The notes below the pieces were generated by a model. The model saw only the letters and a list, made by a program, of their open reading frames with translations, was not told where the DNA came from and did not search any database. Source: an uncultured Chloroflexia bacterium (GTDB lineage: Bacteria > Chloroflexota > Limnocylindria > Limnocylindrales > CSP1-4). Taken from it: 64,000 nucleotides of DNA. Shown piece after piece: positions 34,901 to 61,026 of the stretch. Within the stretch, counting starts at the first letter, position 1, and each line of letters opens with the position of its first letter. The stretch is from the NCBI GenBank assembly GCA_963772995.1, contig CAVYZQ010000004.1:15359-79358 (forward strand), written 5' to 3'. A program made the translations under genes and the position numbers.

Positions 34901-37900
34901 CGTTGGTGCTGACGAGGTGGCGCTGTTGTTGTACGTGGCGCAGCTCGCCGAGGTCGTGGCCGCCGTGACGTGGACCCGAGGCTCTGGCCCGGGGCGAGCG
35001 TGATCGGCTGGCCCGCGAGGCTGAGCACCTGGCTGCCGGGGCCACCCGTGAGGCTGAAGCTGCCGGGGTTGCCTGTCGTGCCGTCGATGACCCAGGTGAC
35101 GGGCGTGGCGGCGTTGCCGCCGGGCAGGCTGTCGGCGAGCTCGACGCCGGTGGCGTTGCCCTGGCCCGTGTTGCTGATCGTGAGCGTGTAGCCGATCGGG
35201 TCGCCGGCGCTGGCGCTGGCGGCGTCGGCGGTCTTTGTGAGCCCTAGGTCGGGGCAGTTGACGACGATGGCGATCGGGCCGACCGCGGGGCTGCCGTCGT
35301 TGGTGCTGTCGGCCGTGGCGCTGTTGCTGACCGTGCCGCAGGTGGCGCCTGTCGTCGGGCTGGTGATGTGGACGTGGACCGAGGCACCCGCCGCGAGGGA
35401 CGCCGGGCCGAAGCCGAGCACGCCGCCGGCGATCGTCCAGCCGGGGCTCGAGCCGGCCGCGTCGATGCTCCAGGCGAGGCCGGGCGGCGTCGTCGGCAGC
35501 GTGTCGCTGACGGTGAGCCCGGTGACCGCGCCGGCGCCGTTGTTGGTGACGGTGACGACGTAGCCGATCGGGCTGCCGGCGCTGACGCTCGGGGCGTCGG
35601 CGGTCTTGGTGATGGCGAGGTCGCCGCAGTTGACGGTGATCGCGATCGGGCCCGCGGTCGGGCTGCCGTCGTTGGTGCTGACGAGGCTTGCGCTGTTGTT
35701 GTACGTGGCGCAGCTCGCCGAGGTCGTGGCCGCCGTGACGTGGACCACGAGGCTCTGGCCCGGGGCGAGCGTGATCGGCTGGCCCGCGAGGCTGAGCACC
35801 TGGCTGCCGGGGCCGCCCGTGAGGCTGAAGCTGCCGGGGTTGCCTGTCGTGCCGTCGATGACCCAGGTGACGGGCGTGGCGGCGTTGCCGCCGGGCAGGC
35901 TGTCGGCGAGCTCGACGCCGGTGGCGTTGCCCTGGCCCGTGTTGCTGATCGTGAGCGTGTAGCCGATCGGGTCGCCGGCGCTGGCGCTGGCGGCGTCGGC
36001 GGTCTTGGTGAGCCCTAGGTCGGGGCAGTTGACGACGATGGCGATCGGGCCGACCGCGGGGCTGCCGTCGTTGGTGCTGTCGGCCGTGGCGCTGTTGCTG
36101 ACCGTGCCGCAGGTGGCGCCTGTCGTCGGGCTGGTGATGTGGACGTGGACCGAGGCACCCGCCGCGAGGGACGCCGGGCCGAAGCCGAGCACGCCGCCGG
36201 CGATCGTCCAGCCGGGGCTCGAGCCGGCCGCGTCGATGCTCCAGGCGAGGCCGGGCGGCGTCGTCGGCAGCGTGTCGCTGACGGTGAGCCCGGTGACCGC
36301 GCCGGCGCCGTTGTTGGTGACGGTGACGACGTAGCCGATCGGGCTGCCGGCGCTGACGCTCGGGGCGTCGGCGGTCTTGGTGATGGCGAGGTCGCCGCAG
36401 TTGACGGTGATCGCGATCGGGCCCGCGGTCGGGCTGCCGTCGTTGGTGCTGACGAGGCTTGCGCTGTTGTTGTACGTGGCGCAGCTCGCCGAGGTCGTGG
36501 CCGCCGTGACGTGGACCACGAGGCTCTGGCCCGGGGCGAGCGTGATCGGCTGGCCCGCGAGGCTGAGCACCTGGCTGCCGGGGCCGCCCGTGAGGCTGAA
36601 GCTGCCGGGGTTGCCTGTCGTGCCGTCGATGACCCAGGTGACGGGCGTGGCGGCGTTGCCGCCGGGCAGGCTGTCGGCGAGGCTCGACGCCGGTGGCGTT
36701 GCCCTGGCCCGTGTTGCTGATCGTGAGCGTGTAGCCGATCGGGTCGCCGGCGCTGGCGCTGGCGGCGTCGGCGGTCTTGGTGAGCGCCGAGGTCGGGGCA
36801 GTTGACGACGATGGCGATCGGGCCGACCGCGGGGCTGCCGTCGTTGGTGCTGTCGGCCGTGGCGCTGTTGCTGACCGTGCCGCAGGTGGCGCCTGTCGTC
36901 GGGCTGGTGATGTGGACGTGGACCGAGGCACCCGCCGCGAGGGACGCCGGGCCGAAGCCGAGCACGCCGCCGGCGATCGTCCAGCCGGGGCTCGAGCCGG
37001 CCGCGTCGATGCTCCAGGCGAGGCCGGGCGGCGTCGTCGGCAGCGTGTCGCTGACGGTGAGCCCGGTGACCGCGCCGGCGCCGTTGTTGGTGACGGTGAC
37101 GACGTAGCCGATCGGGCTGCCGGCGCTGACGCTCGGGGCGTCGGCGGTCTTGGTGATGGCGAGGTCGCCGCAGTTGACGGTGATCGCGACCGGGCCCGCG
37201 GTCGGGCTGCCGTCGTTGGTGCTGACGAGGCTGGCGCTGTTGTTGTACGTGGCGCAGCTCGCCGAGGTCGTGGCCGCCGTGACGTGGACCACGAGGCTCT
37301 GGCCCGGGGCGAGCGTGATCGGCTGGCCGGCGAGGCTGAGCACCTGGCTGCCGGGGCCGCCGGTGAGGCTGAAGCTGGCCGGGTTGCCTGTCGTGCCGTC
37401 GATGACCCAGGTGACGGGCGTGGCGGCGTTGCCGCCGGGCAGGCTGTCGGCGAGCTCGACGCCGGTGGCGTTGCCCTGGCCCGTGTTGCTGATCGTGAGC
37501 GTGTAGCCGATCGGGTCGCCGGCGCTGGCGCTGGCGGCGTCGGCGGTCTTGGTGAGCGCCTAGGTCGGGGCAGTTGACGACGATGGCGATCGGGCCGACC
37601 GCGGGGCTGCCGTCGTTGGTGCTGTTGGCCGTGGCGCTGTTGCTGACCGTGCCGCAGGTGGCGCCTGTCGTCGGGCTGGTGATGTGGACGTGGACCGAGG
37701 CACCCGCCGCGAGGGACGCCGGGCCGAAGCCGAGCACGCCGCCGGCGATCGTCCAGCCGGGGCTCGAGCCGGCCGCGTCGATGCTCCAGGCGAGGCCGGG
37801 CGGCGTCGTCGGCAGGGTGTCGCTGACGGTGAGCCCGGTGACCGCGCCGGCGCCGTTGTTGGTGACGGTGACGACGTAGCCGATCGGGCTGCCGGCGCTG

Positions 37901-40900
37901 ACGCTCGGGGCGTCGGCGGTCTTGGTGATGGCGAGGTCGCCGCAGTTGACGGTGATCGCGATCGGGCCCGCGGTCGGGCTGCCGTCGTTGGTGCTGACGA
38001 GGCTGGCGCTGTTGTTGTACGTGGCGCAGCTCGTCGAGGTCGTGGCCGCCGTGACGTGGACCACGAGGCTCTGGCCCGGGGCGAGCGTGATCGGCTGGCC
38101 CGCGAGGCTGAGCACCTGGCTGCCGGGGCCGCCGGTGAGGCTGAAGCTGGCCGGGTTGCCGGTCGTGCCGTCGATGACCCAGGTGACGGGCGTGGCGGCG
38201 TTGCCGCCGGGCAGGCTGTCGGCGAGGCTGACGCCGGTGGCGTTGCCCGGGCCGGTGTTGCTGATCGTGAGCGTGTAGCCGATCGGGTCGCCGGCGCTGG
38301 CGCTGGCGGCGTCGGCGGTCTTGGTGAGCGCCGAGGTCGGGGCAGTTGACGACGATGGCGATCGGGCCGACCGAGGGGCTGCCGTCGTTGGTGCTGTCGG
38401 CCGTGGCGCGTGTTGTTGACCGTGCCGCAGCTGGCGCCGTCGTCGGGCTGGTGATGTGGACGTGGACCGAGGCACCCGCCGCGAGGGACGCCGGGCCGAA
38501 GCCGAGCACGCCGCCGGCGATCGTCCAGCCGGGGCTCGAGCCGGCCGCGTCGATGCTCCAGGCGAGGCCGGGCGGCGTCGTCGGCAGGGTGTCGCTGACG
38601 GTGAGCGCCGGTGACCGCGCCGGCGCCGTTGTTGGTGACGGTGATGACGTAGCCGATCGGGCTGCCGGCGCTGACGCTCGGGGCGTCGGCGGTCTTGGTG
38701 ATGGCGAGGTCGCCGCAGTTGACGGTGATCGTCGACCGGGCCCGCCGGTCGGGCTGCCGTCGTTGGTGCTGACGAGGCTGGCGCTGTTGTTGTACGTGGC
38801 GCAGCTCGTCGAGGTCGTGGCCGCCGTGACGTGGACCACGAGGCTCTGGCCCGCGGCGAGCGTGATCGGCTGGCCGGCGAGGCTGAGCACCTGGCTGCCG
38901 GGGCCGCCGGTGAGGCTGAAGCTGGCCGGGTTGCCGTGTCGTGCCGTCGATCACCCAGGTGACGGGCGTGGCGGCGTTGCCGCCGGGCAGGCTGTCGGTG
39001 AGGCTCGACGCCGGTGGCGTTGCCGTCGCCGGTGTTGCTGATCGTGAGCGTGTAGCCGATCGGGTCGCCGGCGCTGGCGCTGGCGGCGTCGGCGGTCTTG
39101 GTGACCGTCAGGGCGGCGCAGCTGCAGACGATCGAGGCGGGCGCGGAGTTGCCGCCGTCGTTGGTGCTGGCGACCGTGGCGGTGTTGTTGTAGGTCGAGC
39201 ACTCGCTGGCCGAGGTCTGGGCGCTGATGTGGACGGTGAGGCGTGGCGCCGGCGGCGAGGATGATCGGCTGGCCCGCCAGCGTCAGCGTCTGGCTGCCCT
39301 TGGCGCCGGCCAGCGTGAAGGCGGCCGGGGTACCGGGGGTGGGGTCCTTGACCCAGGTGACGCCCGTGCCCGAGCCGACCGGGAGCGCATCGGTCAGGGT
39401 GACGCCGGTCGCGCTGCCGGTGCCGCCGTTGTGGACGGTGACTGTGAAGCCGAGCGGGTCGCCCGCGTTGACCGGGCTCGCGTCGGCGGTCTTGGTGACC
39501 GTCAGGGCGGCCGAGCTGCAGACGATCGAGGCGGGCGCGGAGTTGCCGCCGTCGTTGGTGCTGGCGACCGTGGCCGTGTTGTTGTAGGTCGAGCACTCGC
39601 TGGCCGAGGTCTGGGCGCTGATGTGGACGGTGAGCGTGGCGCCGGCGGCGAGGATGATCGGCTGGCCCGCCAGCGTCAGCGTCTGGCTGCCCTTGGCGCC
39701 GGCCAGCGTGAAGGCGGCCGGGGTACCGGGGGTGGGGTCCTTGACCCAGGTGACGCCCGTGCCCGAGCCGACCGGGAGCGCATCGGTCAGGGTGACGCCG
39801 GTCGCGCTGCCGGTGCCGCCGTTGTGGACGGTGACCGTGAAGCCGATGCGGGTCGCCCGCGTTGACCGGGCTCGCGTCGGCGGTCTTGGTGACCGTCAGG
39901 GCGGCGCGAGCTGCAGACGATCGAGGCGGGCGCGGAGTTGCCGCCGTCGTTGGTGCTGGCGACCGTGGCCGTGTTGTTGTAGGTCGAGCACTCGCTGGCC
40001 GAGGTCTGGGCGCTGATGTGGACGGTGAGCGTGGCGCCGGCGGCGAGGGTGATCGGCTGGCCCGCCAGCGTCAGCGTCTGGCTGCCCTTGGCGCCGGCCA
40101 GCGTGAAGGCGGCCGGGTTACCGGGGGCGGGGTCCTTGACCCAGGTGACGCCCGTGCCCGAGCCGACCGGGCAGCGCATCGGTCAGGGTGACGCCGGTCG
40201 CGCTGCCGGTGCCGCCGTTGTGGACGGTGACCGTGAAGCCGATGCGGGTCGCCCGCGTTGACCGGGCTCGCGTCGGCGGTCTTGGTGACCGTCAGGGCGG
40301 CGCACAGGACATACTCGGATGCGCTCGGCCGAGTCATTGCCGGCGTTCGTGGTCGTGACGCTGGCGGTGTTGTCGTAGGTCTTGCAGGAGCGCTGGCGTC
40401 GTGTCTGGCTCACGACGTGGACGGTCGGGCTCGCGCCAGGGGCGAGGGTCGTGGGCGTGTAGACCAGGGTCTGGCTGGGCACGGCGCCGCCGATCGACGC
40501 AGCCGGGCCGACGGCGCGTGGGATCGTCCAGGCTGACGCCCGTGCCCGGCGGGCAGCGCGTCGGTGAACGCGACGCCCGTGGCGGTGCCGGTGCCGGTGT
40601 TGGCGAGTGTCACCGTGAAGCCGATGGGGCTGCCTGCGCTGACGCTCGCCGCGTCGGCCGTCTTGGTGACGTCGATCGCGGCGCGGCTGGATGGAGTTCG
40701 CGTAGGTGCAGGTGACCCCCTCGCCCTCGGCGAGGGCGATCGTCGCGGTCGAGCCGTTGACCGTCCGGCTGCCGCCGTTCTCGGTTCCCGGAAGCACCGA
40801 GCAGCTGAGGGTGTTGAACGTCCAGTTCTGGGGCAACGTGGTCTCGTTGACCGTGTAGGTCTGGAAGTTCGTGATCGTGTTGAACCAGCACGCTCGGGGC

Positions 40901-41891
40901 GTCGGGTCCGCCGCCTGAGCCGCCGCTCGTCGTGATCGAGCAGTTGGCCAGCGGGCTCGGGCTGGCCGTGTAACCGAAGGTGGCGTCGCCGCCCGTCGTG
41001 GTCTTGTTGACGTGGATGAAGCCCGGGAAGATGACTGCAGCCGCCGACAGCGATCGATCCTGGTTGCCACCGCTACCGTCGAGCTCGATCAGGCGGGTGT
41101 GGTACGGCGAGCCCGAAATGGCGACTGCCGAGTTGCCGAGGCCCCAGCCACCGGAGCCGCTGTCGGGGAAGCGCTGGGCGATGTGACCCCCCCAGGCAAG
41201 GACAGGATTCGGCACGGAGGCCGTGAACGTGATCGTGATGCGCCGTGAGTTGTTACCAGCGGGCCAGACAACCCCTCCGCCCGAGTAGGCGCTCACGCCT
41301 GTGATGACGCCCGCCGAAGATCGTGAAGTCGCCCGAAGCCTGACCCGGGGCGGAAATCTTCTCCGCCCCGCTGGTCATCTGATCGTCGGCAGGGATCGGG
41401 AACGTCTTTCCGGCGGCGAGAGTACAGCCGGCGACGCCCAGGCACGGGTTGGCATCAAGCACTGACCGGTTGAACGTCGTGAGGTAGTCGAGTGCATGCT
41501 TGCCGCTCTGGGTGGTGTCCCATTCGATGGTGACTGTGTGGCTGCCGGTGGTCGATAGCCCGCTCATGGTCAGGCGATACGGGACCGAGTCGCCTTCGAG
41601 GTACACCGACTTGCTGGCGCCAAGGTTGCCGTTGACCCAGTCCGAGGCGCTCGTCGAGCAGCCATCCGTGTTCGGCGACGGCGCAGGGTCGTTGGCGCAC
41701 TGGTCAAGGTTCGCCGACGCGTTGGCCGCGACGACAGGGGTGACCGTGGACCCGCCCAAGAATGCCGCGGCGATGAGCGCGATCTGCGCGGAGCCGAGCA
41801 GCGCCTTCGACAGGAAGCCGCGAAGCGCGACGGGCCGCCGTCGCCTCCCTGAGAGATGAGCGTTGGCAGAACCGGCCGTCGTGTCCGTCAT
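31980..41891 (-). CDS. Giant (about 3300 aa) cell-surface protein: signal peptide, Cys-rich N-terminal module, prealbumin-like domain, about 22 DUF11-type repeat domains, C-terminal membrane anchor (many frameshifts)
   Basis: The reading was reconstructed across reverse ORFs 41253..41891, 40610..41296, 40183..41070, 39787..40179, 37560..38954, 34852..38475, 36015..37343, 32530..33876 and 31980..35045. Elements in order: MTDTTAGS..GRRRRPVALRGFLSKALLGSAQIALIAAAFLGG..VVAANA; ANLDQCANDPAPSPNTDGC..YLEGDSVPYRL; TYTVNETTLPQNWTF..VTCTYAN; repeated xTKTADA..SAGxPIGY..NxG.G.ATGV..C..N(S/T)A..STNDG..VNC; and the end ...VNCPVEPPPTEAVSEAIWALGPSGSLMVGGVVLALLALGLLFVIPAGPRGRRSDDR. Confidence 0.85.
32140..39100 (-). 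repeat. Coding tandem array, 771-bp unit (two alternating DUF11 domain types A and B): about 10 A and 8 B domains
   Basis: The junction motif recurs at 32525, 33298, about 34073, 35239, 36010, 36782, 37554 and about 38326. Spacing is 770-775 nt apart from one 1169-nt step. By eye, 35239-36009 and 36010-36781 differ at only three small sites. Confidence 0.9.
39100..40290 (-). repeat. Coding tandem array, about 394-bp unit (DUF11 domain type C), 3 copies
   Basis: Mirror ORFs start at 39227/39243, 39621 and 40016 with near-identical text. The sense reading is LTVTKTADASPVNAGDP..TGSATGVTLTDALP..VTWVKDP..FTLAGAKGSQTLTLAGQPI..LTVHISAQTSASECSTYNNTATVASTNDGGNSAPASIVC. Confidence 0.8.
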
Positions 41892-42496
41892 GGCTGTCTT
41901 TTCCCCGCCTGGATTCGCCCTGATGGTGCCTCGATGAGGACGGCAGATCCGGTCCCAACGGAAAGGGTTGCCCTGTCCCGAGGGACGCCCGTGTAACGGA
42001 TAAGGAAGGGTCCGGACCGCTCAGACCCTTCGCCCGCGCTCCGATAACCGCAAGTGGTACCGGGCAACAACGGGACTTTCCACGGCGAACGTAGCCGTAG
42101 CTAGGGTGAAAGTCAATCGGAAGGAGGCTCCGCTTGCTCGTGACCGAGCTGCCCGGCGAGCGGAGGCCGAGGGCATCCCAGGCGTCAACGCGCTCGAGGG
42201 TGGCAATCACGTTGCTGGCCGAAGCAGCTGACCGGCATCTCGCGCGAATCTCCAACCTTCGGCCGAACGTTTAGGCGCGGCTCACGTAAATCCAGCGCGG
42301 GCAACACGTGTCTCAAGCCGGACGTTCATCGGCCGCGAGGTCGAGCTTGTGAGGCGCCATTCCGCCCTCGGCGGCCCGTCGAGGAGCGTGATGCCTGTCG
42401 CCCTTGCGAGGTGGCGGGGGGTGCCCGCGGATGTGGCTGCCGAGTACCTTAAGGGAGCATTCGAGAAGACCCTCAGACTCAGAGACCGCTACGGTT

Positions 42497-45278: not shown

Positions 45279-46645
45279 TCACGTGGCGGTCACCTCGTCC
45301 TTCGCGCGACGCCCTGGCCGACGGCCGGCAACGATGGCCATCCGCCGGCGACTCTCGCCTACCAGCCCACGCAACGCTTGGACCCGTCGGGAGCGGCTCG
45401 GCTCGTCCCGGGTCGCGGCCGCTTCGGCCAGGCTCCCGGAAGCTCCCGATGGACCGGTAGCCGTCCCGGCCGCGTGCGGCGTGGCGGGAACGATCGCGGC
45501 GATCGGCGCCCGCCGGACCGTGAGGCCGGCGCGCGTGATCTCCCCCGCCCGGATCGCCGCGCGCTCGCGTGGCTGGGCGTCCGCGGCGAGCCATGTCGCG
45601 AGGGCCTCGCGGGATGGGGAGAGCCGGCCCTCGCAGATGTCCACGAACTCCTCGCCGGTCATCTCCTCGATCTCGACGAGGTAGGCGGCGACCCGCTCGA
45701 GCAGATCGAGGTTGGCGCGGAGCGTGTCGAGCGCGGTCTCGTACGCCTCGTCGAGGATCGAGGCGATAGCACGGGTCGCGGCGGCCTCGGCCGGACCGCG
45801 GAGCGTGCCGTTCTCGCCGCCGACCAGGTAGCCGAGCGCGCCCCGGCCGGTGATCCCGCCGGCGGTCTCCGGATCGGCGCCGAGACCCCACCTGGTGACC
45901 ATCGCGTCGGCCAGCTGGTTCGCCTTCTCGAAGTCGTTCGACGCGCCACCGGTGTGGTCGACGAACAGCAGCGCCTCCGCCGCCCGACCGCCCATGAGCG
46001 CCACGAGCTGCCCCCGGAGCTGGCCCTCGGACGGCAGCAGCTCGTCTCCTTCGGACGTGAGCGTGTAGCCGAGGGCGTCGCCGTGGCGGAACATGCTGAT
46101 CCGTTCGACCGTGCGCGCCTCCGCGTGGATCTCGGCCGCAGATGGCGTGGCCTGCCTCGTGCGCGGCGATGATGGCTCCCGACGACCACGAATGCGGCGG
46201 CCGCCATCATGAGCGCCCCGGCCAACGGGCCGGTCGCCGGGCCGAAGCCTTGCCCGGCGGATGCCTGGGCCGAGATCAACCGGGCGTACCCGAGTGCCCG
46301 GAGGGCTTCGATGGCCTGGTCGGCCGTCTGCGCCAGCTGGACCTTCGCCCACCGTCCGTCGATCGTCCGTGCGCCCAGCTTGGGCGGGTCCGTCGTCTCG
46401 CTTCCGGTCCGAGCCGAGTGGTCGCCGGCGGTCGGTTCGATGACGGCGACGACCTCGCCCGCGCCGGCATCCCGGATCAGATCGGAAAGCGTCCAGGTCT
46501 CCGCGTAGATGACGTCGGGAGAGGGTTCGGGGTTGGGCGCAGTCGTCGACGGGATCCCCAGCACGCCGATCGCCGCGAACCCGAGCCCGACAAGGATGAG
46601 GAAGACCGGAAGGACGCCATCGAGTTTCCTGGGTATCCGATGCAT
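45279..46645 (-). CDS. FtsH-like membrane protein: TM, extracytoplasmic domain, TM, then directly an M41 zinc peptidase domain; no AAA+ module (2 frameshifts)
   Basis: The start is ATG 46645 (MHRIPRKLDGVLPVFLILVGLGFAAIGVL...). The second TM is GPLAGALMMAAAAFVVVG. HEAGHA is encoded at 46161-46144 in the third frame. ORF 45279..46352 then reads GYTLT...LRGQLVALMGGRAAEALLF..TGGASNDFEKANQLADAMVTRWGL. Confidence 0.7.
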
Positions 46646-47024
46646 GTCATCTCCGCGTGGGACCGACGGCTCGCGGGTCCGAGCCGAGCCTTCAGTCCTG
46701 CGGACCGTCAGCGCCGCTTCTGAGAGACCGACGGGAGGGACGCGGTCTCGCGGGCTCCGAGCCACGGTCGCGATGTGGACGCACCGTAGGGGCACGGGCC
46801 TTAAGGCGATCGCAAAGACGCCACCGGAACCGTTGCATTTCGTCACGGCGCGTGGCCGTCCTCGTCGCTGGAGCCTCGGTCCAGGCCGTGCCCGGGCGCG
46901 TCGTCGTCGCGGCGTCCCGGCAGACAGCAACGGAACTGATTCGCGCATGGCCCGCGGGACGCTTGTGCCGGACTGCCAAGATGAGCACAATCCTGTCGCG
47001 TTTCGCGTCAGGCTCATTCGGGGT

Positions 47025-48048
47025 ATGAAGTTGCGCAACCTGCGTCAACTCGCGACGGCCGTCGGCGCCGTGCTTCTCACGCTCGCCCTGACGACGACCG
47101 CAGTCACCCTCGAGGGGACCCGCGGATCGCCTGCGCCGCCCGCGGTCAACACGCCCGCCACCGCTCCGACGCCGGCGGCCCGTGCGAACACGCCGGACGG
47201 CGCGAGCCGCCGGGCCGGACCGGCCGTGGGAGGACCCGGTTCATCGGTCGCATCCGGCCCGGATCCATCGGTCGCATCCGGCCCCGATGTGGTTGCGGCG
47301 GTGACCGGGTCGGCGTCGGGATCCGCCGTGCTCGCGACGACCGGGACGCCACCGGCGGGCTTCACGATCCGGATCCCGGTGTTCATGTACCACCGGATCG
47401 CGCCCGACTCGCAGATCGGGCGCTCCCTGCCGGGCCTCGTGGTGAGCCCGGGACGGTTCGCCGCCCAGATGGACGCCCTGCATCGCGCTGGTTGGACCAC
47501 CATCACGGCCCGTCGAGCTGGCCGACGACCTGGCAGCCGGCCGGCGCCCACCGCGCCATTCGTTCGTCCTGACCTTCGATGACGGTCGCGAGGACGGGTA
47601 CAGATATGCATTCCCCATCCTCCGCAGGTACGGATTCACGGGCACGTTCTACGTGATCACGAACCGGATCGGCCATACGGGCAATCTCAATCCCACGGAA
47701 CTGCGGAGGATGGCCGCGGCCGGGATGGAGATCGCGAGCCACACCATGAGCCATGTCGATCTCACCCAGCTGTCGTCCACGTCCGTCCGTTCGCAGCTGA
47801 GCGGATCGGCGCGGGCGATCCGCACGGCGGTCGGTGTGCGGCCGATCACGCTCGCCTATCCCTTCGGCAAGTGGAACCGCGGCCTCGCCACCCCGCTCGC
47901 CGCGACCGGCTACCGGATCGCGTTCATCGAGGGCGGGACGTGTGCTCGGGTGACCTGGTCGACGCGCTTCGCGGTCGCGCGGCTGCGCGTCGAGCGATGG
48001 ACCTCAGTCGGCAGCCCGCTGGCCCGCGCGAGGGCGTGCTCGGGCTGA
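47025..48048 (+). CDS. Secreted polysaccharide deacetylase (NodB homology domain), about 2 frameshifts
   Basis: The signal peptide is MKLRNLRQLATAVGAVLLTLALTTTA. Further elements are IPVFMYHRI, FVLTFDDGREDGYRYAFPILRRYGFTGTFYVI, and ORF 47653..48048 (EIASHTMSHVDL...LAYPFGKWN). Confidence 0.8.
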
Positions 48049-49627: not shown

Positions 49628-50137
49628 ATGAGCCTTCCGCAGGTCACCCCGATGCTGTCCTACGAGGACGTCGGCGCTGCCGCCGACTGGCTCTGCTCTG
49701 CGTTCGGATTCAGCGAGGCCTTCCGCATCGACGAAGGCGGACGGGTCACCCACGCGGAGTTGAGGTTCGGCGACGGCGTCGTGATGGCCGGCTGGCCCGG
49801 ACCGCACTATCAGAGCCCGAAACACCATGCCGAGGCATGCGAAGACGCGCGCAGGTGGCTGGCCAGCCCGTTCGTCGTAGACGGCGTCCATGTCATCGTC
49901 GACGACATCGACGCCCACTGTAAGCGAGCCCGTGCGGCCGGTGCGACGATCCTGAGCGAGGTCGAGGACAACGTCGAGGCCGGCCAGCGTCAGTACCGGG
50001 TCGCGGATCTCGAAGGCCACCGCTGGATGTTCGCCCAGCCACTGTGCGTGCGGCCGCGGCAGTTCCTGCCATATACGAGCGTGGATAGTGGTATGCGAGC
50101 TCCCGCATCCAACAAGCCGAATCCTTGCCACATATGA
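49628..50137 (+). CDS. VOC (glyoxalase-fold) family protein
   Basis: ORF 49628..50137 reads VTPMLSYEDVGAAADWLCSAFGF...THAELRFGDGVVM...HVIVDDIDAHCKRARAAGATIL...RQYRVADLEGHRWMF. Confidence 0.75.
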   Translation: MSLPQVTPMLSYEDVGAAADWLCSAFGFSEAFRIDEGGRVTHAELRFGDGVVMAGWPGPHYQSPKHHAEACEDARRWLASPFVVDGVHVIVDDIDAHCKRARAAGATILSEVEDNVEAGQRQYRVADLEGHRWMFAQPLCVRPRQFLPYTSVDSGMRAPASNKPNPCHI

Positions 50138-50297
50138 ATGGCCGTCGATTGAGCCCGTAAAAGAGCCCCATCCGATCCGTCGTTTCGCATAACACGAGCG
50201 CCATTTGTATCTGGCAAAGATCGACGACGACGTCGAACGGAGGCCCGAGACAAATCAGCTGCCGGGAGCGAAGAGCCGGATCTCGGGTCGGCTCCGG

Positions 50298-51663
50298 TCA
50301 GACCAGGCTGTCGTCGTACTCCAGCGGCGCCCTTGCGACGAGGTCGCGCAACCACCAACCGCTGTCCTTGACGATCCGGCGCAGGTCGTGATCGAAGTCG
50401 ACCCACACGACGCCGAACCGTTGCGTGTAGCCGGCCGCCCATTCGAAGTTGTCGAGCAGCGACCAGACGAGGTACCCGCGCACGTCGCAACCGTCGTCGA
50501 TCGCGCGGGCCAGCTGTCCGATGTGCCCGCTGAGGTAGTCGACCCGATCCGCGTCGTGAACGCGCCCGTCGGCGTCCCGGCGCAGTGGCCTCGGCGCAGC
50601 CGTTCTCCGTGATGTAGATGGGCGGATGCCCGTAGTCCCGGTCGAAGCGCATGACGAGACGGTGCAGAGCCGCGGGCCACACCTCCCAGCCGAAGGACGT
50701 TTTGCGGCCGGGCCCGTCGAGGAGGCGCGTCCCGTGGCGCTGGTTCGCCGGGTCGGCGGCCACGATGGCGCGCGAGTACATGTTCAGTGCGATGAAGTCG
50801 AAGGTGCTGGCCATCGACTCCATGTCCCCGGGCCGGATGTCCATCTTCGCGAGCGCCGCGTCCTGGTCGAGAAACGCCACCGGGTAGGTGCCGCGCACCA
50901 GGGGATCGAGGAACCAGGCGTTGACCAGGGCGTGGTGGCGCTCGGCTGCCGCGAGGTCTTCGGCGTCCTCGGACGCGGGGTATGCGACCGCGGTGTTGAA
51001 CGCCGACCCGACCGCCGCGTGCGAGGCGGCCGCCCGAGCCGCGCGGATGCCCTCGGCGTGGGCCAGGTTCACGACATGGCCGACCCGGAGCGCGAGGTCC
51101 GGGTCGCGGATGCCCGGGGCGTGCGTGCCGTCATGGTGGCCCTCCCTGACGAAGACCTCGGGCTCGTTGAGCACGGTCCACGTCGCGACCCGGTCGCCCA
51201 GGCTCCGCACGACCGCATCGACGTACTCGGCGAAGCGCCCGATGACGGCGCGATCGGCCCACCCACCGGCGTCCTGGACCCACTGCGGGAGGTCCCAGTG
51301 GTAGAGCGTCGGATACGGGACGATGTCGTGAGCCAGAAGCTCGTCCACCAGCCGGTCATAGTGGTCGAGGCCCGACTGGTTGACCTTGCCGGAGACATCG
51401 GGGACCACCCTCGACCACGCGATGCTGAACCGATAGGCACCGAGACCGAGCTGGCGAAGGAGGGCGATGTCGTCGGGATAGCGGTGGTATTGGTCGCACG
51501 CCACGTCGCCGGTCGAGCCATCCAGGATCGTCCCGGGCGTATGGGTGAACCGGTCCCAGATCGATTCGCTCTTGCCGTCTTCTTTCCGGGCGCCCTCGAC
51601 CTGGTAGGCGGACGTCGCCGCTCCCCAGACGAAGCCGGCCGGGAAGGTCGCGGTTCTCAGCAT
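50298..51663 (-). CDS. GH1 beta-glucosidase, 1-2 frameshifts near the C-terminal ITENG region
   Basis: From ATG 51663: FPAGFVWGAATSAYQVEGA, YRFSIAWSRV, TLYHWDLPQ, WTVLNEPEV and PIYITENGCAE (ORF 49990..51723). The sequence then continues DADRVDYL...VRGYLVWSLLDNFEWAAGYTQRFG (ORF 50298..50483). Confidence 0.85.
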
Positions 51664-51856
51664 GTGGGGGAGCCTCCTTGGGCACGGATCGCCGCGCGCG
51701 TCTCGCCGGATTCGTTGCGCCAATGGTCCGTCATCGGGACGAGCCGAGTCACGTCAGGCGGACATCGACGTCCATAACGGCTGCCCCGGGAACCTTGGCC
51801 TCCGCCGTGCCTTCCGACGCGTACTCTGAGGTCCGGCATCCGCGGGGAGGCATCAC

Positions 51857-53652: not shown

Positions 53653-54666
53653 CTACCCGACGCCCTGCAGGTCTCGGAGCGCGATCGCACGTCCCTGTTC
53701 GGCTGAGGCGTACGCCCCGAGGATGACCTTGAGCACGTTGATGCCCTCGACCTCGGTGTTGAGCGGCCGACGCCCCTCGCGGAGGCACGCCACGAAGTCG
53801 ATGACAGCGAGGGGGATCGTCTCGATCTTCTCGTGGGGCGGCGCGAGAAGCTGGATGACCTCGCCGCCGCGTGGCCGGTGGTAGAGGGCCTGACCATCGC
53901 TCCACAGGCTGCCGGCTTCGCCGACCACCGAGAACTTCTCCATGGAGTCAGGAGGCTGGTACGCCCAGCTCGTCGTCAGCGTTCCGATCGAGTCGTCGGC
54001 GAAACGGACGATGACCTGGGCCGAGTCTTCGCCCTCGAGGAAGGTCAGCCGGTGACGGGCCAGCATCGCGACGACCTCGACCGGCTCGCTTTCGACCAGG
54101 TTGAGCAGGAGGTACGTCGGGTGGTAGCCGGTGTCGATGAGCTCGCCGCCTCCACTCGTCGAGCGCTGCCCGCGCCACCCGATGGTCTCGGGTTTCAGGT
54201 TGTTGTAGAAGCTGTCGGTCGTCCTGGCCTCGTAGATCGTCCCGAGAAGGCCCTCGCGCACGAGCCTGCGCGCCTCCGCGACGGCCGGCAGGTAGAGCTG
54301 GTTGTGGGAGCACATCAGCGTGATGCCGGCGGCCGTGACTGCCTCCTGAACCCGTTGCGCCTCCTCCATCGTCAGGCACAGCGGCTTCTCGCACAGGATC
54401 TGCTTGCCCGCCTCGGCCGCCGCGACGATCGCTTCGGCATGAAGGTGATGGGGAAGGCAGATGTCCACGGCATCGACGTCGGCGGACGCGAGCAGGTCTC
54501 GATAGTCGAGGTGGACGCTGGCGCCGCCTGCGCGCGCGGCGAGGCCTTCGGCATGCTCGCGGTCGACGTCGGCGATCGCGGTGATGGTCGCCGCCTCGGG
54601 TGCCGCGAGGTAGCCCCTTACGTGCGCGCCGGCGATCGACCCCGCGCCGATGATGCCGATCCTCAC
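53653..54666 (-). CDS. Gfo/Idh/MocA-family NAD(P)-dependent oxidoreductase
   Basis: VRIGIIGAGSIAGAH (Rossmann), DAVDICLPHHLH, ILCEKPL, and a C-terminal alpha/beta domain, all within ORF 53653..54900. The start is GTG 54666 or ATG 54705. Confidence 0.85.
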   Translation of the reverse strand: MRIGIIGAGSIAGAHVRGYLAAPEAATITAIADVDREHAEGLAARAGGASVHLDYRDLLASADVDAVDICLPHHLHAEAIVAAAEAGKQILCEKPLCLTMEEAQRVQEAVTAAGITLMCSHNQLYLPAVAEARRLVREGLLGTIYEARTTDSFYNNLKPETIGWRGQRSTSGGGELIDTGYHPTYLLLNLVESEPVEVVAMLARHRLTFLEGEDSAQVIVRFADDSIGTLTTSWAYQPPDSMEKFSVVGEAGSLWSDGQALYHRPRGGEVIQLLAPPHEKIETIPLAVIDFVACLREGRRPLNTEVEGINVLKVILGAYASAEQGRAIALRDLQGVG

Positions 54667-54676
54667 CCGTCCGTCC

Positions 54677-55709
54677 TCATCCACCTCGTGCTGGCGCCTC
54701 CGCATCCTGGGCGGCGGGTCCCGGCTCGAGTGCCACCTCTCTGCCCGTCTGCGCCGATCGATTCGCCGCGTCGACCAGCACCGTGAGGTCGAGCGCCAGG
54801 GCGATGTTCTCGGTCGCGCTCGTGCCCTCGACGATGTGGCCCACCCACTGCCGGAAGGGCGACGGCGCCGAATCGGGGATCGGGATCTCGGTCCACGCAT
54901 CCCGGTCGGCGTTGGTGTCGCTGACGAGCAGGCGCGGCTCGGGCGTGCCGTAGAGCAGGCTTCCGCGTGTCCCGTGGACCTCGATGCTGAACGGCGAGCG
55001 CGGGTTGACGAAGCCGGTCTCGGCGATGCCGAGACCTCCGGTCGAGCGACGCAGGGTCACCACGGCGTTGTCCTCGACCGCGCGATCGGTGACGTGCCCG
55101 TATGCGGCGGAGACCGCCTCGGGCATGCCGCCGAGGAAAAGACGGGTCAGGTAGAGCGGATGGCAGCCCAGGTCCGCCAGGGCACCTCCACCTGCCTCGA
55201 CGGGATCGAAGAACTGGTCGGGGAGCCAGCGGCGGCCCACGGCGCCGTCGTGCGAGAGCCGGCAGCGCACCAGGGTCACCTCCCCGAGGCGGCCCGACCC
55301 CAGCAGCTCCCGGATCGCGATCGTATAGCCGTGAGCGAGCCTCGGAAGCGAGACCGTGAGCGTGACCCCGTTGGCATCGACCGTGTCGACGATGCGCCTG
55401 GCATCGGCCGGAGTGAGGGCCAGCACCTTCTCGGTGAAGACGTGCTTTCCCGGCCTCTGCCGCGGCCGTGATCACCTCGGGGTGGGCGCTCGTCCTGGTG
55501 GTGACGATGACGCCGTCGACGTCGTCCCGGGCGAGGAGCTCGGCAAGGTCGTCGTGGAACACGACACCGAGATCCGCCGCGCGGGCGCGCCCGCGGCCTG
55601 CGTCGTCGTCCCAGGCGGCCACCAGCTCCACGTCGGGATGCGCCTGCGCTTCGGCCGCATAGTCCTTGGCGTGCACGTGCCAGAAACCCAGGATGGCGAC
55701 TCGGATCAT
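54677..55709 (-). CDS. Gfo/Idh/MocA-family oxidoreductase (second copy), 1 frameshift
   Basis: MIRVAILGFWHVHAKDYA...DGVIVTTRTSAHPEVITAAAEAGK is in ORF 54663..55709. After a shift near 55440 come HVFTEKVLA and the C-terminal domain (ORF 54677..55426). Confidence 0.8.
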
Positions 55710-55725
55710 GGGCGAACGAGATCCA

Positions 55726-56481
55726 TCAGACCTGGGTCCGGAAGCTGAACTGGTGCGGGATCACGAGGACGTACTTGCCGGCCAGCCCGGGGTTGGACGA
55801 CGACGACCGACGGGGCACGAACTGGCGTCCCAGCGCCCCGACACTGAGGGCCGTGCCTGGCGCCGGGCTCGCTCCCCAGACACTCGAACCGCGCGGGTAG
55901 AGCGGGTCCTCGACGATCGCCGCGGTAACCCGGGCGCCGCCGCGAAGTGGGTCGGCGGTGGCGTGGAAGCCGCTCATCACCCAGGCGTGGCGGCCCCGCC
56001 ACATGAGCAATCCGACTGGCTTGCCGGTCGTGCGCATCGCGATGGCAGCCATCTGCATGGCTTCATCGATCGTGTCGGTCCCGACCACCAGATACGGTCC
56101 CGCGCCGGCGAGATTGAGCCCTGCCGCCCACCCGACGACGCTCGCGCCCTGGCGCTCGCGGCCTGGCGGTCGAGGCGGGCTCCAGGCCCTGGCGATGTTC
56201 TGGAGCCGGAGCTGTGTGCTCGCGGATCCGTCGGCACCGGGCTCGAGCATGTTGAGCATCATCTGCATGCTCGCGCCGACGCACTGGACGAGATTGGTCT
56301 GGGACACGAAGTCCGAGCGCTTGCCGAGGTCGTAGACGTACGGCTTCGTCGCCGCGGTCGCTCCGGACGGGACAAGGGCGAGGATCAGGACACAGACGAC
56401 GAGGACGCGGGCCCAGCGGACCGCGGCCCAGGCCGAGACGCGCGGCCGTCGATGCAGCATCGTGAAAGGATACGACCGCAC
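55726..56481 (-). CDS. Secreted/anchored protein with a papain-like (C39-like) cysteine-peptidase signature
   Basis: The N-terminal anchor is WARVLVVCVLILALVPSGATA. SQTNLVQCVGASMQMMLN is a candidate Q..C nucleophile motif and WRGRHAWVMSGF a candidate His. This is a pattern-level call only. Confidence 0.5.
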   Translation of the reverse strand: MRSYPFTMLHRRPRVSAWAAVRWARVLVVCVLILALVPSGATAATKPYVYDLGKRSDFVSQTNLVQCVGASMQMMLNMLEPGADGSASTQLRLQNIARAWSPPRPPGRERQGASVVGWAAGLNLAGAGPYLVVGTDTIDEAMQMAAIAMRTTGKPVGLLMWRGRHAWVMSGFHATADPLRGGARVTAAIVEDPLYPRGSSVWGASPAPGTALSVGALGRQFVPRRSSSSNPGLAGKYVLVIPHQFSFRTQV

Positions 56482-56518
56482 TGGCCGACTGGTTCCGGTC
56501 GCGGCGGAGAGCTCCCTG

Positions 56519-58300
56519 CTATCCCGCGCCGATGGCCTCGACAGTCACGCTGATCGTCGAGGTCCCGGACGTGATGACAAGGTGCCCGACATTCGTGCCG
56601 GCGGACAATCGCGTGCGGTCCACGGTCACCTGGACGGTGAACGGCGTTCCGGGTGTCAAGGCCCCCGAAGCTGGCTTGGCGCTCAACCATTCCTGGTCCG
56701 CGACGATACCGAACGGCACATGGCCGCGACAGCGGGAGGCGGTGATGGTCAGTGGTTTCTGCGTCGCCGTCGAGCCGAAGAGGACCGGATTCGGTGAGGC
56801 GACGAGAGACGGCGAGCAGGCCGGTGTGGCAGTCGGAGTCGGAGTCGGACGTCGGAGTCGGACGTCGGACGTCGGCGTCGGCGTCGGACGCGGACTCGGC
56901 GTCGGAGTCGGCGTCGACTTCGGTGGCAGCGTGGCAGGTCGCGGCGTCGCTGCCCGTGCCGGCGGTCGAGGTGAGGGCGTCGAGACCAGCGACGCTGTCG
57001 GAGTTGGTGGGGTCGGGCCGGTGAGCCCCGTCGACGTCGGCGACGGCGCACCCGGCGCATCGGCGATCACCGTTGATGTCGGCGACGGCGAGCCCGGCTG
57101 ATCCGCAAGCGCCGGCGCCGATGACGGAGGGGCGGCCGCCGGGGTTGGAGACGAGCCGGCTCCTCCGCCAAGCGCGTTTGTGGCCGATGCCGTCGGATCG
57201 CCGGCACCGTTGGCGTCGGCAAGGACGACGGACTCGCTCTCCGTCGCCCCCGCTTGGCTCGTCCCCGGCGCCGACCATGCGAACCGGACGAAGAGCACCG
57301 ATCCGAGGGCGAGCAGGATCAGCACGAGCACTGACGACCCGATCTTCCGCCACGAGTACGTGGTCGTCGGCAGTGCGCCGGGCTGAACGACCTCCGTCGG
57401 TGCCGAAGGGGGCCAGACCCCCGGCGCGGGCCCCGATACCGACGCCGACCCTGAACCCTCGTTCACGCGCCCGATCGGATGGCCAGCGCGATAGGCGACA
57501 GCGACGGCGTCGGTGATCCGGGCACGCGCGTCCGGCGCGAGCACGAGCGGCGTGAACCCGCCGAGGATCGCGAACGGCGAGGCGAGAGTCCGGCGTCGCT
57601 CGTTGCAGACCGCGCAGCCTGCCGTATGTCGATCGATCGCCCGGCGAACCTCCGGCGTCAGCTCGTCGGTCGCGAGCCCGGCGAGCACGGCGTCCAATTC
57701 CCGGCAACGCCGGAACGGCTGGCGCAGGAGGGCCAGCGCACCGATCGCCTCCTGAAGGGTGCGCTTCATCCGGTTGACCATGACGTAGGCGTTGTTCGTC
57801 GATACCCCGAGGACTGCAGCTAGCTCGGCGCCGCTGAAGCCCTGCCGGACGTTGAGATCGAGCACTGAGTACTGCCGTGGCTCGAGGGCCCGGGCGGCGT
57901 CCCAGACCAGCGCCGCGAGTCGCCGCGCCTCGAATGCCTCCTCCGGATCGCCGAAGCGGTTCGTGTCGACGACGTCGAACCCGGTCGCGTCCTCCTCTGA
58001 CCCCGCCCGGGCATCGAGCGGCTGGACACGACTCGCCTTCTCGAGGCGGTTGAGCGCCGTGTTCCTTGCGATGGTGAACACCCAGCCCTTGAAGCTCGCG
58101 CCACTCGAGAGGCCGCCGAGCCCGGTCATGGCCTTGATGAAGGTGTCCTGGGCGATGTCGGCCGCCTCGGCGCGGTCGTGGACGAGCCGGGTCAGGAAGT
58201 CGACGACGCGGTCGAAGTACCGCTCGTACAGCTCCGACATCGCGTCCTGGTCGCCCCCGGCAGCACGGCCGACGAGGTCTTCGTCCGTGTTCATCCCCAT
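56519..58300 (-). CDS. ECF sigma factor fused in one ORF to a ZAS-type anti-sigma domain, a TM helix, a Pro/Thr/Ser-rich linker and an Ig/BACON-like extracytoplasmic domain
   Basis: The gene lies in ORF 56519..59068 from ATG 58300/58294. Region 2 is ELYERYFDRVVDFL..IAQDTFIKAM..FKGWVFTIARNTALN. Region 4 is QYSVLDLNVRQGFSGAELAAVLGVSTNNAYVMVNRMKRTL. Twelve aa later comes CRELDAVLAG..DRHTAGCAVCNERR (HxxxCxxC). The TM is IGSSVLVLILLALGSVLFVRFAW. A PTPS-rich stretch of about 150 aa follows. The C-terminal beta domain is NPVLFGSTATQKPLTITA..TVQVTVDRTRLSAGTNVGHLVITSG. Confidence 0.8.
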   Translation of the reverse strand: MGMNTDEDLVGRAAGGDQDAMSELYERYFDRVVDFLTRLVHDRAEAADIAQDTFIKAMTGLGGLSSGASFKGWVFTIARNTALNRLEKASRVQPLDARAGSEEDATGFDVVDTNRFGDPEEAFEARRLAALVWDAARALEPRQYSVLDLNVRQGFSGAELAAVLGVSTNNAYVMVNRMKRTLQEAIGALALLRQPFRRCRELDAVLAGLATDELTPEVRRAIDRHTAGCAVCNERRRTLASPFAILGGFTPLVLAPDARARITDAVAVAYRAGHPIGRVNEGSGSASVSGPAPGVWPPSAPTEVVQPGALPTTTYSWRKIGSSVLVLILLALGSVLFVRFAWSAPGTSQAGATESESVVLADANGAGDPTASATNALGGGAGSSPTPAAAPPSSAPALADQPGSPSPTSTVIADAPGAPSPTSTGLTGPTPPTPTASLVSTPSPRPPARAATPRPATLPPKSTPTPTPSPRPTPTPTSDVRLRRPTPTPTATPACSPSLVASPNPVLFGSTATQKPLTITASRCRGHVPFGIVADQEWLSAKPASGALTPGTPFTVQVTVDRTRLSAGTNVGHLVITSGTSTISVTVEAIGAG

Positions 58301-58321
58301 CGCCAGTCTCGGGCATCGGTC

Positions 58322-58347
58322 AACGGGGAGATGGCTTGTAAGGATTC
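58322..58347 (-). promoter_or_regulatory. Possible ECF-type promoter upstream of the sigma gene (GAATCC-N16-CGTT)
   Basis: The reverse strand reads cGAATCC ttacaagccatctccc CGTT, which ends 21 nt before ATG 58300. It resembles GGAAC-N16/17-CGT(T) ECF promoters, but the -35 element is degenerate. Confidence 0.25.
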
Positions 58348-58397
58348 GGCGGCTCGGTGGTCGTACCCATGACGGCACCCGTACAGGAGCACCGAGC

Positions 58398-61026
58398 ATG
58401 AACCGGACCACCCGCGCAGCGACCATCGGCATCCTGGCCTGCATCGTCGTGACCACGGGCGCACTCGTGGCCACGTCGTCCCCGTCGGCTCCAGCGGTCG
58501 ACGCGGGGACGAACATCGAAACGGTCTCCGCACCGATCGAATCGGCCTCGCCATCGGCGCCGGCCACATCCGTCGCCGCGACACCTGCGCCGCCCTCGCC
58601 GAGCGCGTCGACCGAGACTTCGGCGGACTTCGACGTCTCGGTCGCGCCCCACCTGAAGCCGACCGTCGTCGAGGTCGAGGGCCTCGAGGACGGCGACGCG
58701 CCCCGCCCGGTCGGCAGGATCGCGGAGGCGGACGGCGCGAGCGACCTCGTCCGCGACGAGCTCATCGTCTCCACCCGAACCCAGGCGGAGCTCGAGGGCT
58801 TCCTCGCCCGATGGAACGGCGTGGTGCTCGACTCGTTCCCGACGGCCGACGACGGCATGACCGACCACCTGGTCCGCATCGATCCATCGACCGCCGACGT
58901 CTCGAACGTCGCCGCGGATCTCGCCGCCTTCGAGCCGCACGACGACATCTCCGTGAGCGACGATGCGACGCTTCGTCTGCTCGCGATCATGGCCGCCGAG
59001 ACCGCCCGGCATGGGACGCCGGTCATGCTCAACCAGCTCGAGGAAGCTGACGGCGTGCCCGACGGCAAGGCGCAGGAATCCAGCGATCAGGCGAATCCGT
59101 TTACCTGGTCCTACCTGCGCGGTGGCGGCACCCAGGACTTCGCCGTCGCCCCGGCGTGGCAGTTGCTCGCGGCCAAGGGTCGCCTGACGCGGAGCGTCCG
59201 CATCATGATCAACGACGGCGGGTTCACCTCGACGCCGGATTTCCCCGAGGACGTCACGCTCCGCAAGGCCGACTGGGGCGATGAGAACCCCTCCAAGTGC
59301 ACGGGCGGCAAGCCGTGTCCCTTCCACGGGACGGACGTGACCACGACGCTCGTCGGCCAGCTCGACAACGGGTACGGCTCGGTCGGTCCGGCCGGTCCCG
59401 TGGTCGACAAGCTCATCCTCGTGTCGATCCAGAAGGACACCTGGAAGCGGCTCCGGACCCTCGAGGACATGGTCGCCACGTACCGGCCGGACGTCGTGAA
59501 CATGAGCTACGGGGCAACGGTCACCGCCGCTCGCGCCGCGACGCAGGCGGCCTACGACCGCCGCTACAAGCACATGCGCGACATGGGCGCCCTGCTCGTC
59601 GCCGCGGCCGGCAACGATGGCTTCGACCTCGACCAGGAGAAGTGCGTGGCAGGGTCATGCTTCGAGCGTCGTCTCGTGTTCCCGTGCGAGAGCTCGTACG
59701 TCCTGTGCGTCGGCGGGATCGCGAGGGACACGACCGCGCGCGCCGGCAAGTCGAACTACGGCTGGAAGGACGATCGACGGTCGGTCGAGCTGTGGGGCCC
59801 GATGAGCGTCGTCACCATCAACGACCCGAACCGCACATTCCTCGACTTCACGACCAAGTGGACGGGCGGGACGAGCTTCAGCAGCCCGTTCGTGGCCGGG
59901 GTGGCCGCGCTCGTCAAGGCCGCCGACCCGTCGCTCGGCCCCGAGGAGATCCGGAAGATCCTGAACGAGACGGCCAACTCCGGCGTCCAGGGACAGTGGA
60001 TCACCGGCAGCCAGCGACGGGTCGACGCCCTGGCGGCCGTCGCCCGCGCGCTCCACGTCGATCTGCACGCGCCGAAGGTCGTGATCACCAACCCGACCAA
60101 CGGCAAGGACTATCCGCTCAGCGAGCTGTTGCAGCTCAAGGGCACCGCCATCGACTACCGCGGCGTCGCCCTGCCGATCACGTGGGTCGACAGCCTCGAT
60201 GGCAAGCTCGGCAACAAGGTCGGCACGGTCAGTCTGGGCGCGCTGTCCATCGGAAAGCACGTGCTCACCGCGACCGCGGTCGACGCCATCGGCCAGACAG
60301 GCAAGGCGCAGATCTCGTTCGAGGTGATCCGCCGGCCGGTCCAGGTCATAGTCAGCTCACCCGCGGACGGGACGCAGATCGAGGAAGGGCGATCCGCTCC
60401 TGCTCGCGGCCGGCACGGGTGACCCCGAGAACTACTGGCAGGCACTCGCGGACAGCGCCGTCCGCTGGGAGATCCGGCGGACGAACGGCAACACCGTGAT
60501 CTGGGCGCATGACGGGCACGACAACCTGGTCAATGGTTCCGCGCTCGAGCCCGGCTCGTACAAGGTGACATTCAAGGCGACGTCGCACGGGGCGACCGTG
60601 ACGGCGACCCGCTCGATCGTGGTCAAGGCACTCCCGCCCGGCCATCACAAGCCGGTCGTGACGATCAGCAAGCCGACTGACGGCAAGGTCCTGCACACCG
60701 GTGGCGCGCCCGTGGAGCTCAAGCTGGCGGGGTCGGCGGTCGACGCGGAAGACGGGCCACTGCCGGGGACGCGCTTCCAGTGGGTCGCGACGGCCGGCAA
60801 CAAGACGGTGGTCCTGTGCACGGGCTCGCAGTTCAAGGCGCCGACCGGGAACGGGCCCGCCGTGGCCGCGCCGGTCAAAGACTGCTCGAAGCCGACCGTC
60901 TCGCTCGGGGTCTCGCCGCTCGCGCCGAACGAGCCGACCTGGGAGATCAAGCTCCGGGTGCGCGACTTCGCGAACGACATCGGGACCGGGATCGTCACGG
61001 TGGACGTCATCGTGCAGATCGGCTGA
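58398..61026 (+). CDS. Secreted subtilisin-like S8 serine protease with a long N-terminal region and C-terminal Ig-like repeats, 1 frameshift
   Basis: ATG 58398 gives MNRTTRAATIGILACIVVTTGALVA. The catalytic triad contexts are IMINDGGF (Asp), PFHGTDVTTTLVG (His) and WTGGTSFSSPFVAGVAALV (Ser), all in ORF 57792..60422. The tail is ORF 60496..61026, joined by a shift near 60385. Confidence 0.85.

Follow-up and report, generated by a model that had tools for sequence, protein, structure and literature searches.

A 64,000-nucleotide stretch of the genome of an uncultured Chloroflexia bacterium (contig CAVYZQ010000004.1; the whole stretch is called "the window" here) carries on its minus strand a gene whose product joins an extracytoplasmic function (ECF) sigma factor, a zinc-binding anti-sigma (ZAS) domain, a membrane helix and an outer Ig-like domain in one protein. 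The parts of this sigma fusion are as follows, with residues counted along the 593-aa product.

56519-58300, minus strand: whole gene, a 593-aa fusion of ECF sigma factor, ZAS anti-sigma domain, transmembrane helix, linker and BACON-like domain (open reading frame (ORF) list and sequence)
58028-58231, minus strand: sigma region 2, residues 24-91 (Pfam Sigma70_r2, E 1.3e-14; predicted local distance difference test (pLDDT) >90)
57755-57907, minus strand: sigma region 4, residues 132-182 (Pfam Sigma70_r4_2, E 2e-4; model helices 141-193)
57482-57706, minus strand: predicted class I ZAS domain, residues 199-273 (invariant ligands, profile matches to ZAS domains, model helices)
57704-57706 (C199), 57626-57628 (H225), 57614-57616 (C229) and 57605-57607 (C232), minus strand: predicted zinc ligands, invariant in 59 sequences
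57275-57343, minus strand: single transmembrane helix, residues 320-342 (Kyte-Doolittle 2.6 over 19 residues; model helix 323-341)
56816-57268, minus strand: Pro/Thr/Ser/Ala-rich disordered stalk, extracytoplasmic, residues 345-495 (composition; pLDDT <50 to ~65)
56528-56815, minus strand: C-terminal BACON_2/PapD-like Ig beta-sandwich, residues 496-591 (Pfam, model, Foldseek)

The stop codon of the gene lies at 56519-56521 and its ATG at 58300 or 58294, the latter being the start that lines up with the MTTD... start of the homologues; the minus-strand frame is already open from 59068, upstream of the ATG. The original prediction, made from the DNA letters, had placed sigma factor and ZAS domain in a single uninterrupted frame, and this is how the 593-aa ORF reads: the junction between sigma region 4 and the ZAS domain (nt 57704-57754) lies in one frame with no stop, the two alternative frames over it are closed or nonsense, and 16 residues separate the end of the Pfam region 4 match (residue 182) from the first zinc ligand (residue 199). 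This short junction had been located correctly, as had every other element that was named, all of which were recovered by Pfam, hydropathy and sequence in their expected places: the HTAGCAVC motif (residues 225-232, nt 57605-57628), one transmembrane helix (the single hydrophobic segment at 320-342), a Pro/Thr/Ser linker of about 150 aa (residues 345-495, with 51% P+T+S plus 16% A) and a C-terminal Ig/BACON-like beta-sandwich (BACON_2 above the Pfam cut-off and nine modelled strands).

Profile matches assign the protein to the ECF (group 4) sigma-70 factors, with Pfam Sigma70_ECF above its cut-off (E 8.5e-5) and NCBIfam TIGR02937 (sigma70-ECF) at 85 bits versus a cut-off of 42.9. The best PDB sequence matches of the sigma core are AlgU and RpoE, its PDB profile matches are AlgU, RpoE and SigW (E 1e-16 to 1e-21), and the last helix of region 4 runs on to about residue 193 in the model. 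The extension that follows is, judging from its sequence, a homologue of class I ZAS anti-sigma domains, and it is predicted to bind zinc through the pattern C199-x25-H225-x3-C229-x2-C232. A 26-residue cysteine-to-histidine spacing is known from RsrA. Only W73, L202 and the ligands C199, H225, C229 and C232 never vary across 59 diverse sequences. When a profile of residues 192-276 was compared with all PDB chains, it retrieved the ZAS domains of ChrR (7e-5), RsiW (1.4e-3) and RslA (0.018); anti-sigma chains were not picked up by the full-length profile against PDB, the extension-only profile being the one that found them. The modelled helices of the ZAS part (200-209, 216-228, 230-239, 242-247 and 256-273) are confident.

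Between the anti-sigma domain and the membrane lie about 45-110 flexible residues, and the transmembrane segment occupies the equivalent place in nearly all homologues; the arginine and lysine that precede it (YSWRK) place the N-terminus in the cytoplasm. Beyond the stalk, whose length differs across the family, the C-terminal domain is a BACON_2 Ig-like domain (PF19190, residues 502-588, E 7e-11, 42.3 bits versus a cut-off of 25), modelled as nine strands with pLDDT 96-98, for which Foldseek returned the accessory Ig domain of GH115 and the HYDIN, ASH and PapD folds. In the alignment with relatives its C495, C524 and W538 are invariant, and the invariant cysteine pair fits an extracytoplasmic location. 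The BACON_2/PapD-like fold is often joined to glycoside hydrolases; sugar binding by this domain would be hypothetical.

The conformation of the sigma part was approached with an AlphaFold (AF2) model computed from a 59-sequence alignment (predicted template modelling score 0.64). With Foldseek, the whole modelled sigma part superposes on SigW of the SigW-RsiW complex (template modelling score 0.79-0.80), whereas one domain only fits (0.46-0.48) when the reference is RNA polymerase-bound sigma-E, or AlgU or RpoE in complex with an anti-sigma factor. As a model-based comparison, this superposition agrees with a closed, self-inhibited sigma factor.

The original prediction had raised the concern that an indel might have fused two ORFs, so that a normal sigma gene and a separate downstream ZAS gene would only appear as one in this assembly. 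That worry was fair, given probable indels elsewhere in the window, with apparent frameshifts in the neighbouring S8 subtilase gene (~60361-60389), a GFO oxidoreductase gene (near 55430-55470) and a repeat gene at 32-42 kb, so that indel errors in this assembly are plausible; it was settled, and the indel refuted, by comparison. All 120 of the listed homologues, from many independent assemblies, carry the identical uninterrupted fusion, with H-x3-C-x2-C at about residue 205-235 followed in nearly all by a transmembrane segment, and in an alignment of 21 sequences (the window protein and 20 relatives) the junction is free of gaps and conserved in sequence. When one-genome-per-species contigs were scanned with this 21-sequence alignment, sigma, ZAS and transmembrane parts lay in one ORF at 36 of the 40 Chloroflexota loci, and none was split between sigma region 4 and the ZAS domain. 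The prediction had also called for a search for orthologues with the same fusion, which were found throughout, thereby excluding that they are always split. In the reverse search, residues 190-345 on their own retrieved 225 hits from 1.84 billion representatives; 136 of these were new, and in 121 of the new ones a sigma domain precedes the anti-sigma part. Among the 15 without one, most are fragments, since they begin inside the last sigma region 4 helix. A ZAS domain of this type is thus almost never seen without a preceding sigma domain, and we regard an assembly artefact as extremely improbable. Two Dehalococcoidia metagenome-assembled genomes (MAGs) stand apart in the scan (L041 and L040): their sigma ORFs end at 162 and 97 aa, the tblastn match reaches residues 217 and 264, and the genes are probably frameshifted copies in those assemblies.

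All fused loci in the genome scan came from Chloroflexota MAGs, labelled Dehalococcoidia, Chloroflexia, Anaerolineaceae, Thermomicrobiales, Tepidiformaceae, Thermoflexus and Ca. Amarobacter, and the closest of them is 71% identical; the non-Chloroflexota loci were ordinary sigma factors of 160-210 aa. The family comprises at least 225 clusters at 50% identity, as reached from the anti-sigma part alone, and some of its proteins exceed 1000 aa. Its outer module varies, with BACON_2 in 29 of 59 members and, elsewhere, HYDIN/Cep192-type Ig domains, TSP3 repeats or, in one member, a sortase domain. Instead of the BACON-like module, the relatives P0091, P0090, P0165 and P0232 have a sortase domain, thrombospondin type 3 repeats or over 700 additional residues.

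Aligned upstream regions of the sigma genes in this family share a promoter-like motif, tGTAAGA-N16-GTCTnAC, on the coding strand and 90-170 nt before the start codon. The strict pattern occurs in 26 of the 42 upstream regions, compared with a background of 14 matches in 891 kb (0.004 per region), and a position weight matrix derived from 32 sites that lie before the relatives' sigma genes recovers the motif at 33 loci. The left hexamer is invariant and the right element varies as GTC-n-n-A-C, a form that resembles RpoE/AlgU-type -10 elements. Nearby genes that encode anchored or secreted proteins have the motif as well, always correctly oriented and 30-105 nt before the start codon; behind it recurs a family of ~400 aa, in which L079, the sole member for which there are Pfam data, has a Big_5 domain. 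Read from the sequences, such a layout usually marks an ECF sigma factor that is autoregulated and has a small local regulon, and we infer that the sigma fusion itself reads the motif. At four loci (L001:7750-9022, L002:7765-11831, L003:7992-8393 and L079:7977-10361) the promoter stands before genes just downstream of the sigma gene, which include up to three tandem paralogues of the ~400-aa membrane-anchored family, and these motif-bearing genes look like the regulon in those lineages. A conserved 5' leader of ~90 nt follows the promoter in L004-L032 (e.g. L020:5897-5988), outside the window's clade; its hairpin shows UA/CG covariation in 8 versus 8 sequences, the stretch UCGACGG is invariant, and it has no Rfam match; RNAalifold on the relatives' leader gave a single weak hairpin. 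Nothing was detected by Rfam and tRNA scans that covered the window and five loci.

In the window the motif stands between the sigma fusion and a divergently transcribed subtilase gene, across a gap of 97 bp.

58336-58366, plus strand: family ECF-type promoter, towards the S8 gene (-35 GTAAGG 58338-58343, 16-nt spacer, -10 GTCGTAC 58360-58366)
58398-61026, plus strand: secreted subtilase, Peptidase_S8 plus Ig-like C-terminal domains (Pfam Peptidase_S8 E 8e-21; Shine-Dalgarno AGGAG 58385-58389)

The weight matrix scores this element at 26-28 bits, the top of the 64-kb window on both strands, with the next best at 6.6 and no second copy of the promoter element in the window; in all five clade relatives the element has this orientation, with scores of 15-31 bits. 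The S8 ATG (58398) follows 31 nt after the end of the -10 element, and the encoded protein has an N-terminal signal or anchor. Since the window's only promoter copy points at it, the subtilase is the predicted output, likely a direct target of the sigma fusion. In the five closest relatives (L044 and L081-L084; 56-74% identity) a divergent secreted S8 subtilase of ~855 aa always adjoins the sigma gene and the other flanks differ; most family members lack an adjoining S8 gene and have Big_5 surface proteins or others behind the same promoter. Read towards the sigma gene, on the minus strand, the element is GTACGA-N16-TCCTTAC, a weaker match, and this near-palindrome may give weak autoregulation of the sigma gene; from 55600 to 58500 no sigma-70-type promoter was found, and near the gene one chance-level terminator-like hairpin only. 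In the window the S8 gene is read in two frames, 58398-60422 and then 60361-61026, with the frameshift near 60361-60389: residues 1-647 of the L081 orthologue map to 58398-60389 and residues 638-858 to 60361-61023. The break is either an assembly indel or the mark of a pseudogene.

Judged by its architecture, the protein belongs to a general kind that is already known, in which an ECF sigma factor carries a membrane-spanning anti-sigma extension fused to it. Published examples are the groups ECF48, ECF52 and ECF53, where the sigma factor continues at its C-terminus into a zinc-finger anti-sigma domain, a transmembrane part, a Pro-rich linker and an outer domain (PMC5826349, PMC8999054, PMC10766802); a review files them under activation by proteolysis (PMC8999054). 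For SCO4117 of Streptomyces coelicolor (ECF52), excision of the sigma part by an unknown protease has been proposed, and its truncated sigma-only form is active and autoregulates (PMC5826349); for IutY of Pseudomonas putida, release by Prc and then RseP has been shown, and truncations without the anti-sigma part are constitutively active (PMC5411451). The view of such fused ECFs as "one-component" devices is likewise in the literature. The anatomy given in the original prediction and its proposed way of working therefore stand, but not the novelty that it implied for a fused, membrane-inserted sigma/anti-sigma protein, as ECF48, ECF52, ECF53 and IutY had been published before.

The likeness to the actinobacterial groups is close: ECF52 (SCO4117), ECF53 and ECF48 have the same order of sigma core, zinc finger, transmembrane helix or helices, Pro-rich linker and outer carbohydrate-binding or Ig-type domain, and the same proposed scheme, in which an outer signal leads by proteolysis or conformational change to sigma release, with positive autoregulation. 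Those groups are, however, described as Actinobacteria-only (PMC5826349), whereas the window's family was found by genome scan in Chloroflexota genomes only, and by this published restriction the window protein would fall outside ECF52 proper. The best actinobacterial fused relative, from Nonomuraea (P0119), has 29% identity (E 1e-16); the outer domain is BACON_2/PapD-like here versus an NPCBM-type module in SCO4117, and the promoter is GTAAGA-N16-GTCTnAC here versus the CSGYN-17-SRHA proposed for SCO4117. IutY (ECF243) shares a cytosolic ECF sigma factor, a transmembrane part and an extracytoplasmic part in one polypeptide, but is of the FecI/FecR cell-surface-signalling type, with a TonB-dependent outer-membrane receptor and no ZAS motif. 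The window protein has no FecR-family match at E up to 1 (Pfam), and no TonB-dependent receptor neighbour was found; it does not appear to be an IutY/FecR-type hybrid. Among two-gene systems, SigW-RsiW of Bacillus subtilis, ChrR-RpoE and RslA-SigL have a homologous anti-sigma domain, and the sigma part as modelled is most like SigW when bound to RsiW; two-gene ZAS systems have separate, co-transcribed sigma and anti-sigma genes, whereas here both lie in one chain with about 6-16 linking residues, and the genes that neighbour the sigma fusion are not anti-sigma factors. What is new is a Chloroflexota-wide family with a variable outer module, a conserved ECF-type promoter and a predicted target; the mechanism is not.

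We consider it reasonably likely that the gene product is a transmembrane signalling device in one polypeptide, an ECF sigma factor with a fused anti-sigma extension that is released by proteolysis and has the S8 subtilase as its output. The core of sigma regions 2 and 4 would lie in the cytoplasm and, as we infer, be held inactive in cis by the adjacent class I ZAS domain, with the flexible segment and the one transmembrane helix anchoring the protein in the membrane and the 150-aa Pro/Thr-rich stalk presenting the disulfide-containing BACON/PapD-like Ig domain outside as the input module. A signal at the outer part, or its proteolytic trimming, would turn the transmembrane segment into a substrate of a site-2 intramembrane protease; the freed sigma-ZAS fragment would lose its anti-sigma part and then bind RNA polymerase, and the free sigma factor would read GTAAGA-N16-GTCTnAC promoters, the one copy here driving the subtilase. 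RsiW, a single-pass membrane ZAS anti-sigma factor, is itself removed by regulated intramembrane proteolysis. By analogy with IutY and SCO4117, release of the sigma fusion is probably proteolytic too; the general scheme of anti-sigma removal by regulated proteolysis is set out in PMC8999054.

Several points weigh against this reading. Two of the domain profiles by which the original prediction was to be checked (Sigma70_r2, Sigma70_r4 and zf-HC2, all of which matched) score below their cut-offs in the window protein, namely Sigma70_r4_2 (21.2 bits, cut-off 25.7) and zf-HC2 (residues 199-232, E 0.009); these weak single-sequence scores are rescued by the matches in the family (55 of 59 members for Sigma70_r4_2; 18 of 59 relatives for zf-HC2, best 1e-9), by the invariant ligands and by the PDB profile matches. 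The closed conformation is a prediction judged by superposition, and AF2 may simply reproduce known complexes. The window yielded neither a site-2 (M50) protease gene nor any further release machinery, and has one HExGH motif only. The S8 gene is syntenic in the close clade only and frameshifted in the window, and the element read in the sigma direction mismatches two otherwise invariant positions. The motif, moreover, is partly an inverted repeat (GTAAGA / TCTTAC) and could be the operator of a dimeric regulator; as the principal explanation of the motif, a symmetric operator was rejected, since conservation differs between the halves, complete in the left and limited to GTC-n-n-A-C in the right.

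Alternatively, the ZAS domain could itself be the true sensor, with thiol oxidation or zinc loss opening the closed state, the sigma factor acting while tethered or after a cytoplasmic cut, and the outer domain serving localisation or anchoring only. The Cys-His-Cys-Cys ligand set, all of it invariant in the family, is that of the redox-sensing RsrA/RshA type, the ~45-110 flexible residues before the membrane could let a tethered sigma factor reach RNA polymerase, and transcription activators that work from the membrane are known, ToxR and CadC among them. We nevertheless hold this unlikely: the outer module is conserved within clades, including its invariant cysteine pair, and swapped between clades for binding or enzymatic modules, which is the pattern expected of an input domain; many ZAS proteins share this motif without sensing redox state, and both RsiW and ChrR are inactivated by proteolysis or via other domains (PMC8999054); and the one biochemically studied fused sigma/anti-sigma protein is released by proteolysis (PMC5411451).

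The subtilase might also be more than an output and act as the site-1 protease that trims the stalk and licenses intramembrane cleavage, giving a self-amplifying switch. Consistent with this are the divergent S8 pairing, strict in six of six members of a clade whose other flanks differ, the family promoter that points at the S8 gene, the N-terminal signal or anchor of its product, and the precedent of IutY, whose periplasmic part needs trimming to about 50 residues before RseP acts (PMC5411451). A site-1 role, though, would be argued from analogy and gene context, the S8 gene is absent beside most family members and frameshifted in the window, and other neighbours stand behind the same promoter, so that neighbours look like outputs rather than machinery; we think such a role quite improbable. 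A version of it, a two-gene, self-amplifying proteolytic switch in which one 31-bp near-palindrome (GTAAGG-N16-GTCGTAC / GTACGA-N16-TCCTTAC) would drive the S8 gene strongly and the sigma gene weakly while the subtilase trims the stalk, seems to us a long shot. Proteolytic release in response to an outer signal, with the subtilase as output, remains the reading we prefer.

The remaining neighbours are mentioned for completeness. Downstream of the sigma fusion, 37 nt after its stop and on the same strand, lies the gene (55726-56481, minus strand) for a protein of 251 aa that begins with a signal or anchor and has no Pfam, NCBIfam or PDB match; the gene is not found next to the relatives; a Q...C and later H pattern in it recalls, on our own reading only, papain-like peptidases. 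The relatives share no synteny for this gene, the GFO genes or an RHH gene. A GFO/IDH/MocA oxidoreductase gene (54663-55709, minus strand) is apparently frameshifted, its Rossmann N-terminus (residues 2-89) lying in one frame and the remainder in the overlapping ORF 54677-55471; a second GFO gene, at 53653-54900, is intact. Further away, a GH1 beta-glucosidase ORF (49990-51723, minus strand) covers positions 3-365 of the 453-position Pfam profile and may be truncated or frameshifted, and a HEAGH metalloprotease-like motif at ~46161 (minus strand) lies in a 459-aa ORF (45659-47038) with no Pfam hit that may be a frame-broken gene. At ~32000-42000, on the minus strand, a very large gene encodes a surface protein made of tandem repeats (DUF11, DUF7507 and CARDB); all three of its frames are open for kilobases, the repeat units switch frame, and it ends in a hydrophobic, anchor-like C-terminal tail.

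Together, these observations extend a kind of sigma factor described from Actinobacteria to a sizeable Chloroflexota family with interchangeable outer modules. The sharply defined promoter motif means that candidate regulon members can be read straight from genomes, the predicted member here being a secreted subtilase, and the compact set of sigma factor, promoter and target could be studied in vitro or serve as an orthogonal switch.

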